64,000 nt of DNA from an uncultured Candidatus Saccharibacteria bacterium (GTDB lineage: Bacteria > Patescibacteriota > Minisyncoccia > Minisyncoccales > CAZKCU01), in assembly GCA_964551595.1 (NCBI GenBank), contig CAZKCU010000002.1, positions 3,081 through 67,080 on the forward strand, given 5' to 3'. Positions 42,855 through 46,323 of the stretch are shown here, one piece after another. Under the pieces are notes generated by a model, which made no database searches, had not been told where the DNA came from, and saw nothing but the letters and a program-made list of their open reading frames with translations. Made by a program: the position numbers and the translations under genes. How positions within the stretch are numbered: position 1 is the stretch's first letter; each line of letters begins with the position of its first letter.

Positions 42855-44273
42855 GTGGAATTAAAAAATTTAACAATAAAAGAAATTCATGATAGTTTAT
42901 TGAAAAAAGAGTTTTCAGCCTTTGAACTCTGTAAAATTCATTTAGAGAAAATCAAAAAAGAAGACAAAAAATTCCGAGCTTTTTTAACTATAAGCAAAGA
43001 TTTAGCAATTAATCAGGCAAAGGGAATTGACGAAATGATTTCTCAAGGAAGAGAGACCTCAATTCTGGCCGGTATTCCCCTGGCAGTTAAAGATAATATT
43101 TTAGTTGAAAATATTAAATGCACGGCTGGCTCAAAAATTCTGGAAAATTATATTGCCCCTTATGATGCCACTGTCATAAAAAAACTTAAAGAAATTGGGG
43201 CAGTAATTTTAGGAAAGACAAATATGGATGAATTTGCCATGGGTTCTTCGACTGAAAACTCAGCTTTTGGCTCTACCCGTAATCCCCATGATTTGACCCG
43301 GGTCCCTGGAGGCTCTTCTGGGGGATCGGCAGCTGCTGTCTGTGCCAATCTTTGTTGCTATGCTTTAGGTTCTGATACAGGAGGATCTATTCGTTTACCA
43401 GCTTCTTTTTGCGGAGTAGTTGGACTAAAACCAACCTATGGAGCAGTTTCTCGTTATGGCTTGATTTCTATGGCTTCTTCCTTAGACCAGATAGGGACTA
43501 TTACTAAAACAGTCAAAGATGCTAAAATAGTTTTTGATGCAATCTCGGGAAAAGACCCATTAGATTCGACTTCGGTCGAATCTAAAATTGCAGGTTCCAA
43601 ATTCCAAATTCCAAATTTACGCATTGGAATTCCTAAAGAATATTTTATTAAAGGAATGGATGCTGAGGTGGAGAGAATAATAAAAGAGGCAATTAAAAAA
43701 ATTGAAGCTCTGGGAACGAAAATTGAAGAAATAAGCTTACCTCACACCGAATATGCTCTTGCCACTTATTATTTAGTGATGCCTTCTGAAGCCTCGGCTA
43801 ATTTAGCGAGATACGATGGAATAAAATATGGATATTTCCCGGAGGAGACAGATAGTTTATTAGATGTTTATTTAAAATCAAGGGAAAAAGGTTTAGGCCC
43901 AGAGGTGAGACGCCGAATTATGCTCGGAACCTATGCTTTATCTGCAGGTTTCTATGAAGCTTATTATTTAAGAGCTCAAAAAGTTCGGACTAAGATTTTA
44001 GAAGATTTTAATAAGGCTTTTGAGATGGTTGACCTTATTTTGACTCCTACTTCGGCAGCTCCGGCTTTTAAGATTGGAGAAAAAATTACCAATCCCTTGA
44101 CAATGTATCTATCTGATATTTTTACTGTTTCAGTAAATTTAGCCGGATTACCCGCTCTTTCTCTGCCTTGCGGTAAAACTCATGGTCTTCCGGTAGGGCT
44201 CCAAATCATTGGAAAGGCTTTTGAGGAAAACAAAATTTTAGAGTTTGGGGAAGTTTTTGAAAAATTATGTTAG
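42855..44273 (+). CDS. gatA: Asp/Glu-tRNA amidotransferase subunit A
   Basis: Amidase signature GGSSGGSAAAV...GSDTGGSIR; GTG start. Confidence 0.95.
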   Translation: MELKNLTIKEIHDSLLKKEFSAFELCKIHLEKIKKEDKKFRAFLTISKDLAINQAKGIDEMISQGRETSILAGIPLAVKDNILVENIKCTAGSKILENYIAPYDATVIKKLKEIGAVILGKTNMDEFAMGSSTENSAFGSTRNPHDLTRVPGGSSGGSAAAVCANLCCYALGSDTGGSIRLPASFCGVVGLKPTYGAVSRYGLISMASSLDQIGTITKTVKDAKIVFDAISGKDPLDSTSVESKIAGSKFQIPNLRIGIPKEYFIKGMDAEVERIIKEAIKKIEALGTKIEEISLPHTEYALATYYLVMPSEASANLARYDGIKYGYFPEETDSLLDVYLKSREKGLGPEVRRRIMLGTYALSAGFYEAYYLRAQKVRTKILEDFNKAFEMVDLILTPTSAAPAFKIGEKITNPLTMYLSDIFTVSVNLAGLPALSLPCGKTHGLPVGLQIIGKAFEENKILEFGEVFEKLC

Positions 44274-44773
44274 AGAATTTAATTTATTTAAAATTCATTA
44301 CCCCGGGAATTTTGCTCTCCCTAAAAATTCTTTTTATAGTTATTTCTTTGTTTTTACTTGTTATTATTTTTCATTCTCTTAGAAAAAGTAGCTGGCTAAA
44401 ATATAGATTTTTGCAAGATATGGTAGAGATTTTAACTTACCGGCCTTATGGAATAAAAAAAATGGCCAAAATTTGGTCAAAGATTAAGGGAAGATTAGAA
44501 CTTGGCGCTGAATCAGAATATAAGCTGGCAGTGATTGAGGCAGATAGTATGTTGAACGACGTCCTGGAAAGAATGGGTTTTAAGGGAGAGATCCTGGGAG
44601 ATAGGTTAAAGCAGGTGACCACAGATATCCTTCCAAACGTTGAAGAAAGCCGGGAAGCTCATGAGGTTCGCAACAATATTGTCTATGACCCGGATTACAA
44701 GTTAACCTTAGACCAGGCCCAAAAAGTATTGAAAATTTATGAACAGGCCCTTCAGGATTTACAGGTATTTTAG
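44267..44773 (+). CDS. hypothetical membrane-anchored protein
   Basis: N-terminal TM followed by a helical soluble domain; no recognisable motif. Confidence 0.6.
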   Translation: MLENLIYLKFITPGILLSLKILFIVISLFLLVIIFHSLRKSSWLKYRFLQDMVEILTYRPYGIKKMAKIWSKIKGRLELGAESEYKLAVIEADSMLNDVLERMGFKGEILGDRLKQVTTDILPNVEESREAHEVRNNIVYDPDYKLTLDQAQKVLKIYEQALQDLQVF

Positions 44774-44847: not shown

Positions 44848-44876
44848 TTGATTTTTATTAAAAACTACGATATAAT
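44848..44876 (+). promoter_or_regulatory. sigma70-type promoter TTGATT-17nt-TATAAT for the tRNA cluster
   Basis: The -10 box ends 5 nt before the first tRNA nucleotide. Confidence 0.6.
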
Positions 44877-44881
44877 AACGC

Positions 44882-44952
44882 CGCGGGGTGGAGAAGTAGT
44901 ATCTTGCGAGGCCCATAACCTCGAGACGCTGGTGCAATTCCAGTCCCCGCAA
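44882..44952 (+). tRNA. initiator-like tRNA-Met (CAU) with non-canonical D/T loops
   Basis: C1-A72 mismatch (CGCGGGG...CCCCGCA-A), as in bacterial tRNA-fMet. The anticodon loop is CCCAUAA, the D-loop AGUAGUA has no GG, and the T-loop is UGCAAUU rather than UUCNANN. No CCA is encoded. Confidence 0.7.
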
Positions 44953-44960
44953 CTAGTTTA

Positions 44961-45032
44961 GCCGGTGTAGCTTAATGGTTAAAGTGGGGCTCTCATAAGG
45001 CCTAGATGAAGGTTCGATTCCTTCCATCGGCA
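44961..45032 (+). tRNA. tRNA with CAU anticodon (elongator Met or Ile2)
   Basis: Canonical cloverleaf with acceptor GCCGGTG/CATCGGC, D-loop AATGGTTA and T-arm GAAGGTTCGATTCCTTC. Confidence 0.85.
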
Positions 45033-45035
45033 CAT

Positions 45036-45112
45036 GGGGATGTAGCTCAATTGGCTAGAGCACATGCTTGTCGAGCATGGGGTTGTGGGTTCGAGTCCCA
45101 TCGTCCCCGCCA
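45036..45112 (+). tRNA. tRNA-Asp (GUC), CCA encoded
   Basis: Acceptor GGGGATG/CGTCCCC, anticodon loop TTGTCGA, G73 and T-arm GTGGGTTCGAGTCCCAT. Confidence 0.92.
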
Positions 45113-45133
45113 GTTGGAAAAAGTCAACAATTT

Positions 45134-45198
45134 CGCCTCGCCGCTTCGCGGCTCGGCGGTCAAATTTTTTGGAAGCCGTAAAACCGGCGTTTTTTTTA
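45134..45198 (+). terminator. two hairpins with T-runs after the tRNA cluster
   Basis: CGCCTCGCCGC-TTC-GCGGCTCGGCGG followed by AAATTTTTT, then GCCG-TAAAAC-CGGC followed by G-T8. Confidence 0.5.
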
Positions 45199-45259
45199 TT
45201 CTTCAAATTGAGTTCAAATTTTGACCATATTTTAGTAGTAGTTATCCACATATTTTTAC

Positions 45260-45288
45260 TTGAAATCTGTTCAAAATTAAGGTAAAAT
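45260..45288 (+). promoter_or_regulatory. promoter TTGAAA-17nt-TAAAAT placed 6 nt before the pheS ATG (leaderless-type layout)
   Basis: Hexamers at 45260-45265 and 45283-45288, with the ATG at 45295. Confidence 0.45.
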
Positions 45289-45294
45289 GAAACA

Positions 45295-46323
45295 ATGAAG
45301 ATGCTAAAAATTAACCTTAAATTACTCAAAAATCAAATCAAAAAAGCCATTGATTCGGCAAAGGATTTAAAAGAGTTGAATGATATTTTTAAAAGATATT
45401 TAGGGAAGAGGGGAGAGCTTACCCAGATTTTGCGTTCTTTAGAAAAGTTGCCAAAGGCAAAAAGGGTTAAAATTGGCAAAGAGGCAAATGAACTTAAAAA
45501 TTTTCTGAGAATTAAATGCGACCAAAAAGTACAAGAGATTAAAGAAAAAATTAAAAAAGAGACTGCTAAAATCGAATGGATTGATATAACTCGGCCGGGA
45601 AAAAAGCCAGTTCTTGGGCATTTACATCCTCTATCGCAAGTTAAAAGTAAAACCGAGGAAATTTTTCAATTAATGGGTTTTTCAGTGGTTGAAGGTCCGG
45701 AGATTGAAACTGAATGGTACAATTTCGACGCCCTAAATATTCCCAAAGACCATCCAGCTAGAGACCTTTGGGACACTTTTTATCTTAAAAACGGTCTGCT
45801 TTTAAGAACTCATACTTCACCAGTTCAAATTCGTTATATGAAAAAAAATAACCCTCCCTTACGTATTATTGTTCCTGGTCGAGTTTTCCGCCATGAAGCC
45901 ACTGACGCCAGCCACGAAATTAACTTTTATCAAATTGAGGGATTAATGGTTGATAAAAAAGTCACAGTAGCCAATTTTAAAGCAATTATCCAGGAATTTT
46001 TTCAGAAATTTTTTGAAAAACCGATTAAAATTCGCTTAAGACCAGGTTTCTTCCCTTTTACTGAACCTTCATTTGAAGTTGATATGACCTGCCTAAATTG
46101 TAAGGGAAAGGGTTGTTCTGCCTGCCAAAGAACCGGCTGGATGGAGATGATGGGAGCTGGGATGGTTCACCCTAATGTTTTTAAAGCAGCCGGGCTTAAC
46201 CCAAAAAACTGGCAGGGATTTGCCTTTGGAATAGGTTTAGATAGATTAGCTATGATGAAATACAAAATCAACGATATTAGATTGTTCTATTCTGGAGACC
46301 TCCGCTTTCTCCACCAATTTTAA
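45295..46323 (+). CDS. pheS: phenylalanyl-tRNA synthetase alpha subunit
   Basis: HPARD.WDTFY, RTHTSPVQIR, GFAFG.GLDRLAM. Confidence 0.96.
   Translation: MKMLKINLKLLKNQIKKAIDSAKDLKELNDIFKRYLGKRGELTQILRSLEKLPKAKRVKIGKEANELKNFLRIKCDQKVQEIKEKIKKETAKIEWIDITRPGKKPVLGHLHPLSQVKSKTEEIFQLMGFSVVEGPEIETEWYNFDALNIPKDHPARDLWDTFYLKNGLLLRTHTSPVQIRYMKKNNPPLRIIVPGRVFRHEATDASHEINFYQIEGLMVDKKVTVANFKAIIQEFFQKFFEKPIKIRLRPGFFPFTEPSFEVDMTCLNCKGKGCSACQRTGWMEMMGAGMVHPNVFKAAGLNPKNWQGFAFGIGLDRLAMMKYKINDIRLFYSGDLRFLHQF

Follow-up and report, generated by a model that had tools for sequence, protein, structure and literature searches.

Can a tRNA that carries the acceptor end of a bacterial initiator serve in translation when its D-loop, T-loop and anticodon loop depart from the canonical pattern, or is such a gene a decaying copy? 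A gene in a 64,000-nucleotide stretch of DNA (the window) from an uncultured bacterium raises this question. In reviews, the L-shape is held together by four invariant positions, G18, G19, U55 and C56, and pseudouridine at 55 is described as universal (PMC7912444); the gene has A18 and G55 in place of two of them. The initial annotation had listed the deviations in the D- and T-loop one by one, for an initiator-like tRNA. Our analysis leads to a different reading, to which we assign a probability of about 0.88: the gene encodes the functional and sole initiator tRNA(fMet) of a Parcubacteria-type CPR bacterium, it heads an fMet-Met-Asp operon, and its elbow has been rebuilt as A18/G55/A57. Within the literature available in full text, outside of which most subscription journals lie, neither an A18/G55 elbow nor CPR T-loops nor bacterial initiators with C33 have been found described, and the gene is apparently an undescribed, real and conserved variant of a very well-known molecule.

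An initiator cloverleaf with an altered elbow

For tRNA scoring, ARAGORN and Infernal with Rfam have been used. ARAGORN calls a tRNA-Met(CAU) at 44882-44953, and the Rfam model RF00005 matches 44882-44952 over its full length with 49.0 bits (gathering score, 29), which is the Infernal scoring that had been proposed for the locus. Direct reading of the gene (Table 1) has borne out its assignment to the initiator type at each identity element: besides the CAU anticodon, the acceptor stem CGCGGGG/CCCCGCA begins with the non-Watson-Crick C1.A72 (C at 44882, A at 44951), which Rfam flags as a non-standard pair, and continues with the Fmt determinants G2:C71 and C3:G70, followed by the discriminator A73, while the D-stem GAGA/UCUU contains A11:U24 (A at 44892, U at 44904). 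The T-stem reads GCUGG/CCAGU, the variable region comprises four nucleotides (AGAC), and CCA is not encoded, CUA being the next three nucleotides. In the anticodon stem CGAGG/CCUCG, two of the three pairs that are G:C in typical initiators are G:C here (A29:U41, G30:C40, G31:C39), as had been noted before, and because of this we class the tRNA as a variant within the bacterial initiator tRNA(fMet) family and not as a textbook member. A single-sequence minimum-free-energy fold differs from the cloverleaf, which is uninformative, as tRNAs often give other structures when folded as single sequences.

The claimed C33 and G55 are both present, and the canonical elbow of G18 G19 and U55 C56 is replaced by A18 G19 and G55 C56. 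The earlier statement that the D-loop lacks G18 G19 is correct for the GG dinucleotide and has to be amended for G19: the seven-nucleotide loop AGUAGUA, numbered A14 G15 U16 A18 G19 U20 A21, retains a G19 able to pair with C56, and position 18 alone is altered. The gene does not correspond to a eukaryote-type initiator either, having U54, U60 and C1.A72 where A54, A60 and A1:U72 would be expected, and sharing C33 alone with that type.

Table 1. Features of the initiator tRNA locus and of the two other tRNA genes of the genome with the altered elbow (positions refer to the window unless contig C1 is given; positions within locus L184 in brackets)
Feature	Position	Strand	Basis or details
-35-like hexamer TTGATT	44848-44853	+	promoter scan
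-10 hexamer TATAAT, 17-nt spacer	44871-44876	+	promoter scan
Initiator tRNA(fMet) gene, nucleotides 1-73 in standard numbering	44882-44952	+	ARAGORN, Rfam, cloverleaf of 74 homologues
A18 G19 of the D-loop (loop 44895-44901)	44898-44899	+	direct reading
Anticodon loop CCCAUAA	44912-44918	+	C33 at 44913, anticodon CAU at 44914-44916
T-loop UGCAAUU	44933-44939	+	U54, G55 (44934), C56, A57, A58, U59, U60
Elongator tRNA-Met(CAU), second gene of the operon	44961-45032	+	Rfam 69.5 bits, GG in D-loop, T-loop UUCGAUU
tRNA-Asp(GUC), CCA encoded, third gene of the operon	45036-45112	+	ARAGORN, Rfam
Hairpin pair with a U-run after either stem, likely operon end	45133-45197	+	fold of 45110-45200
tRNA-Cys(GCA), A18/G55 elbow	C1:132915-132988 (L184:116-189)	+	
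tRNA-Phe(GAA), A18/G55 elbow	C1:133872-133945 (L184:1073-1146)	-	

A single initiator in a core-genome operon

The assembly comprises 543 kb in seven contigs with 36% G+C and is rated 96% complete, and the closest named homologues of its PheS are labelled Patescibacteria, Nealsonbacteria or Parcubacteria. ARAGORN finds 46 tRNAs, only two of which have a CAU anticodon, namely the initiator and the neighbouring tRNA, whose description as fully canonical has held. A canonical initiator, which would have cast doubt on the present gene, has not been found among the tRNAs that ARAGORN reports from this 96%-complete assembly. As tRNA-Tyr has not been detected by ARAGORN in the same assembly, a second initiator could in principle lie in unassembled DNA. 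A tRNA-Ile with a genomically encoded UAU anticodon is located at C1:128203-128275, and a match to the TilS family (PF01171) has not been found in the genome; on these grounds the CAU neighbour is read as the elongator tRNA-Met, its identification as tRNA-Ile2 is unlikely, and the initiator candidate is single. Two ARAGORN calls are unassigned: a "tRNA-???(taaa)" at C1:211317-211394 is without Rfam support, and the other is a genuine tRNA-Ser(CGA).

The order fMet-Met-Asp is conserved in most relatives. Downstream of the operon, folding places a hairpin at 45133-45159 followed by UCAAAUUUUUU and a second one at 45175-45188 followed by U8; these likely terminate the tRNA operon, and a scan for consensus terminators has not reported them. 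The gene order around the operon is GatA, an ORF of 168 amino acids (44267-44773, + strand) in which no Pfam match has been found, the tRNA operon, PheS and PheT, which is a core-genome context.

The enzymes expected to act on an initiator are encoded as well: Fmt (Formyl_trans_C, 94.9 bits), Def (Pep_deformylase, 168 bits), a CCA-adding enzyme, and both subunits of RNase P, with 127 bits for the RNA and 98.5 bits for RnpA. From its identity elements and these enzymes, the tRNA would be charged by MetRS, formylated by Fmt, and used in the ribosomal P site like other bacterial initiators.

Conservation among relatives

Homologues have been collected from 40 related genomes, 39 of them from different families of the same order, and the fMet-Met-Asp operon or its initiator has been found in most of them. 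A pattern scan of a species-representative genome collection has matched 120 further loci, of which 57 are initiator-type tRNAs by ARAGORN and four more by eye, the remainder, about half of the 120, being chance or coding matches. Apparent occurrences in Bacteroidota and Firmicutes in the raw scan have turned out to be such false matches, and all confirmed loci with a named lineage belong to the CPR (Saccharibacteria, Parcubacteria/Paceibacterota, Giovannoni-, Wildermuth-, Staskawicz-, Portnoy-, Zambryski-, Sung- and Pacebacteria).

Across 74 distinct CPR homologues, every stem cell pairs (1480/1480, 100%), and changes on both sides have occurred in 14 of the 20 stem pairs. The observed values for pairing and compensation are reached by none of 500 shuffles, and sliding the partner column by one to three positions lowers pairing to 30-52%. 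The set has been pre-filtered for pairing of the acceptor stem only, so that the D, anticodon and T stems provide an unbiased test. G2, C3, G4, G30:C40 and G53:C61 are invariant, A11:U24 is held in 69 of the 74, and position 1:72 is mostly C.A (38) or A.A (27), with U-A in six.

Position 33 and the anticodon stem vary within the same set. C33 occurs in 28 of the 74 initiators and U33 in 46, and C33 is independent of the elbow, since it is also found in initiators with a canonical one; it is a lineage-variable, tolerated state, and in the genome itself it recurs in six tRNAs (fMet, Arg-CCU, Gln-UUG, Thr-CGU, Val-GAC and Ser-CGA). As to the anticodon stem, 47 homologues have AU/GC/GC, and the remaining forms include AU/GC/UG in 12, GC/GC/UG in eight and fully GC in four, and two of three G:C pairs are, by these counts, the norm in this CPR group.

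A coordinated change at positions 18, 55 and 57

The comparison with related genomes has shown that the changes in the D- and T-loop covary. With a degenerate pattern that admits either purine at position 18 and G or U at position 55, the order sample yields 31 initiators with A18/G55, two with G18/U55 and none that is mixed, and a sample of 401 genomes from the phylum yields 13, 30 and none, both counts covering initiators with a four-nucleotide variable region only. The sampled CPR genomes with a matching initiator (n = 74) divide into 42 with A18/G55 and 32 with G18/U55, again without a mixed case. Both states occur inside single families (f96 and f83) on otherwise near-identical sequences, and together with the cases in the own order and the own class, this implies a minimum of four concerted switches. 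In the 582 distinct tRNAs read from all the loci retrieved, a set enriched by design for initiators of the altered type and therefore informative on the exclusivity of combinations and not on their frequency, GG is combined with U55 in 416 and AG with G55 in 131, and GG with G55 in none; A57 accompanies the change in 130 of these 131 tRNAs versus 144 of the 416 canonical ones (35%). As the loci of this large tally have partly been picked by patterns that demand the change, the degenerate-pattern counts for order and phylum are the fair ones. On this covariation, the changes in D-loop and T-loop are one coordinated event, a swap of a tertiary pair with G19:C56 kept, and neither separate oddities nor decay.

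In the canonical elbow, U55 contacts G18, C56 pairs with G19, and R57 is stacked between them (PMC7912444), so that the three covarying positions are physical neighbours. As far as can be read from covariation, the structural logic is clearly that of a covarying tertiary module: the outer G19:C56 pair is kept, and the inner contact between G18 and pseudouridine 55 would be replaced by A18/G55 together with A57. We infer a direct replacement contact between A18 and G55 from the computed covariation, with a possible geometry in which A N6-H faces G O6 and G N1-H faces A N1. G55 would then assume the U-turn role of U55, similar to the first G of a GNRA loop, residues 55-58 being GCAA, and the L-shape would presumably be preserved. 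Neither pseudouridine 55 nor Gm18 can be formed on this initiator.

The genes for modification and processing, whose inspection had been suggested for the locus, give a divided picture. TruB_N has not been found in the genome, the TruB model having matched 14 of 14 control genomes, nor has a gene of the TrmA type (PF05958), the model of which matched 12 of 14, and both RNase P subunits are present as given above; the case is consequently not one of life without RNase P. A loss of TruB that frees position 55 has been considered and rejected as a requirement. TruB_N is present in 271 of the 401 genomes of the phylum sample (a total in which one count comes from a genome flagged as unpublished, G191, that bears on no conclusion), it is retained in 10 of the 13 genomes with the swap, and it is missing in several with a canonical initiator, so that its loss has been no precondition.

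The swap in tRNA-Cys, tRNA-Phe and phages

Two further tRNAs of the genome combine A18 G19 with G55, namely tRNA-Cys(GCA) with the D-loop AAGUAGCUAA and the T-loop UGCAAUU (Rfam, 62.5 bits) and tRNA-Phe(GAA) with the D-loop AUGUAGUA and the T-loop CGCACGU (54.1 bits), and the elbow is canonical in all tRNAs other than fMet, Cys and Phe. Of the distinct tRNAs collected from relatives, 20 of 23 tRNA-Cys and nine of 26 tRNA-Phe carry the swap. In the T-loop CGCACGU of tRNA-Phe, the reverse-Hoogsteen pair U54:A58 has given way to C54 and C58; this loop is common to the closest relatives (L213), and UGCAAGU is found in most tRNA-Phe with the swap.

A stricter pattern has identified 30 contigs of IMG/VR, in 29 of which the matching tRNA has been confirmed by ARAGORN, mostly with a mismatch at 1:72 (C.A, A.A, G.A or U.U). 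Phage clusters of up to 28 tRNAs have the matched tRNA as their sole carrier of G55, and that none of the adjoining tRNAs shows the swap suggests a connection with initiator identity, in contigs that have been selected via this very tRNA. The IMG/VR loci L154, L161, L164, L169, L173, L175, L178 and L179 carry 11-28 tRNAs each, with one initiator-like tRNA-Met per locus that has a mismatch at 1:72 and alone combines A18 with G55.

A bacterial radiation and many phages would accordingly run initiation on a tRNA in which one anchor of the L-shape is replaced by the covarying A18/G55/A57, which constitutes a natural experiment on the actual requirements of the elbow contact. Such tRNAs also show which enzymes have to tolerate or skip the changed elbow, including TruB, TrmH, RNase P, the CCA-adding enzyme and Fmt. 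In addition, tRNA gene finders score these genes low and could be improved.

Promoter geometry and the 5' end

The promoter TTGATT-17-TATAAT at 44848-44876 matches the consensus in 10 of 12 positions; the rules by which promoters are read here come from E. coli sigma-70 and from an indirect calibration. The hexamer TTGATT or TTGACT is also found upstream of the initiator in many relatives. Five nucleotides (AACGC) separate the -10 box from nucleotide 1; the short distance described in the initial annotation has been reproduced and is conserved in relatives. At 54 initiator loci with a recognisable promoter this gap lies between 4 and 32 nt, 5 nt being the commonest value (eight loci), seven of these eight being from different families of the own order and one from a Sungbacteria MAG. 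The spacer bases differ (AACGC, AACAT, ATCAT, AGGAA, ATTTG, AAAAG, AACAG, CATTC) at constant length. At the heads of the other tRNA operons of the genome, the gaps are 8-14 nt.

For calibration of the start site, strong promoters closely followed by the ATG of a long ORF have been collected from this genome. The ATG follows the -10 box after 6 nt in four cases (including PheS), 7 nt in one, 8 nt in five, 9 nt in two, 10 nt in one and 11 nt in two, and a long ORF starting 5 nt after a strong -10 box has not been found in the genome. PheS is apparently leaderless: in 45260-45297, TTGAAA-17-TAAAAT ends at 45288, and the ATG follows 6 nt later at 45295. At least 15 long ORFs of the genome start 6-11 nt past a strong -10 box, and if these are leaderless or nearly so, the polymerase would begin no earlier than position 7, which is also the case in E. 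coli. Polymerases of the sigma-70 type rarely start less than 6 nt after the -10 box in E. coli. Counted from the -10 box, C1 of the initiator occupies position 6 and G2 position 7. Among loci with a short gap, pyrimidine-first initiators have a gap of 5 (eight loci) or 6 (one), and A-first initiators a gap of 6-8, save one locus with a weak promoter and a gap of 4; position 7-8 is then taken, in either class, by a purine that follows a pyrimidine, the numbers being small and the loci related. This pattern fits, as far as promoter sequences allow, a transcription start at G2 in pyrimidine-first and at A1 in A-first initiators. From this geometry, we consider a start within nucleotides 1-2 slightly more probable than one elsewhere; the narrower proposal that transcription begins at G2 and leaves the initiator devoid of nucleotide 1 is unlikely, with odds of roughly three or four to one against it. 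With a start at nucleotide 1 or 2, it would be transcription initiation, and not RNase P, that generates the 5' end.

Leaderless tRNA genes have been described for Nanoarchaeum equitans, where promoters set transcription to start at the mature 5' end (PMC10100707; PMC3491384). In that organism the arrangement is genome-wide and RNase P has been lost, whereas RNase P is present here, the putative likeness is one of promoter geometry, and the gaps are slightly longer at the heads of the other tRNA operons. If the geometry has been read correctly, the 5' end of a bacterial tRNA would be set by transcription initiation, and the role of nucleotide 1 in initiator identity would become directly testable.

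Alternative explanations

That the gene is a decaying pseudogene or an artefact of sequencing or assembly, with the real initiator missing from the assembly, could be argued from its Rfam score, which is below those of the other three tRNAs in the window, and from the fragmented and slightly incomplete assembly. Both have nevertheless been ruled out as far as comparison permits, and we regard them as extremely improbable: the stems are intact and conserved, identical loops with compensatory stem changes recur in independent assemblies of 31 of the 40 order relatives, the 57 ARAGORN-confirmed loci from public genomes and the 74 distinct sequences in all speak against an artefact, and the gene heads a conserved operon behind a near-consensus promoter, no paralogue or other initiator having been located. 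Neither a canonical copy elsewhere nor an assembly error accounts for the locus. An origin from a phage or mobile element, as a prophage tRNA or an integration target and not as the own tRNA of the host, might be suspected from the initiator-like tRNAs with the swap on the 30 IMG/VR contigs, many of which lie within phage tRNA clusters, yet it is just as remote, given the core-gene neighbours (GatA upstream, PheS and PheT downstream), the synteny of the operon across the order, and the upstream 108 nt, for which blastn within the genome has returned only A-rich scraps and no repeat, and given that the gene is the only initiator of the genome.

The functional initiator with a swapped elbow being the preferred reading, two of its aspects are much more evenly balanced. 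The change to A18/G55/A57 may be neutral, compensated drift in fast-evolving reduced genomes that merely keeps the fold, an explanation to which we give nearly even odds. It agrees with the plasticity of the elbow in this order (C55 with G18, C19:G56 and A19:U56 variants), with the sporadic swap in His, Leu and elongator Met tRNAs, with the alternation of both states within families, and with the lack of a link to TruB. Against it, the swap is strongly concentrated in initiator, Cys and Phe tRNAs, and its restriction to the initiator-like tRNA in phage clusters, the loci having been picked by pattern for that same tRNA, suggests selection tied to identity. Rather doubtful, by comparison, is the far-reaching proposal of an identity-linked initiator module, selected in the CPR and independently in phages, that alters an elbow-reading partner, with the initiator starting at nucleotide 2 or 1; candidate partners would then be TruB or TrmH, RNase P, contacts of the ribosomal P/E sites or a tRNA-targeting nuclease, and the initiator would bear a 5'-triphosphate without passing through RNase P, with the mismatched nucleotide 1 perhaps missing from it altogether. 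As for the 5' end, the close promoter may be unused or only partly used, with RNase P cutting a normal leader that results from read-through or an upstream start, for which the chances are somewhat below even. RNase P is needed for the second and third tRNA of the operon anyway, the gaps at the other operon heads imply short leaders, and the gap among CPR initiators varies widely; on the other side, the initiator promoter is among the best matches of the genome, the exact 5-nt distance is held across families while the spacer bases change, and no leaderless ORF begins closer than 6 nt. Aminoacylation in E. coli tolerates 5' extensions shorter than 8 nt (PMC7049720), and selection on very short leaders may therefore be weak.

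Relation to other initiator and elbow types

The initiator type encoded by metZWV and metY in E. coli shares with the present tRNA the CAU anticodon, C1.A72, G2:C71, C3:G70, A73, A11:U24 and the G:C pairs next to the anticodon loop, and Fmt and Def are encoded in both. In contrast to this type, the tRNA has A18/G55/A57 in place of G18 and pseudouridine 55, C33 in place of U33, A29:U41 in place of G29:C41, a four-nucleotide variable region, no encoded CCA and a promoter abutting nucleotide 1. Initiators with fewer than three G:C pairs, with stems AU/GC/GC or AU/GC/GU, occur in mycoplasmas and some alpha-proteobacteria; to our knowledge, these keep the canonical elbow and U33. Mitochondrial tRNAs with degenerate contacts between D- and T-loop also depart from the G18 G19/U55 C56 rule. 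There, contacts have been lost in eroded tRNAs, whereas here a precise, conserved and covarying replacement is placed in an otherwise perfect cloverleaf.

The cytoplasmic initiator of eukaryotes resembles the tRNA in combining an initiator-specific departure in the T-loop with C33 (PMC9023262; PMC7912444), the latter being a peculiarity of initiators in eukaryotes (PMC9023262). Eukaryotic initiators, however, alter positions 54 and 60 (A54:A58) and keep G18 and U55, whereas positions 18, 55 and 57 are altered here and 54, 58 and 60 are standard, and their 1:72 pair is A:U instead of a C.A mismatch. The likeness is an analogy and not a homology.

Further elbow variants in the order

As read from the collected genomes, this order has an unusually plastic elbow, which changes in a compensated fashion. 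Covariation of the outer pair has been observed in tRNA-Leu(UAA) (L187, L199, L205), in which a D-loop with ..UGCU.. is combined with a T-loop UUGGA, corresponding to C19:G56, and in tRNA-Val(UAC) (L231, L235), in which ..GAUUA is combined with UUUAA or UUUGA, corresponding to A19:U56. C55 (UCCGA or UCCAA) stands uncompensated beside an unchanged G18 G19 in 17 distinct tRNAs of relatives, with examples in elongator tRNA-Met (L003, L004, L010, L021), tRNA-Ile(UAU) (L213, L218), tRNA-Val (L201, L218, L230) and tRNA-Arg (L214).
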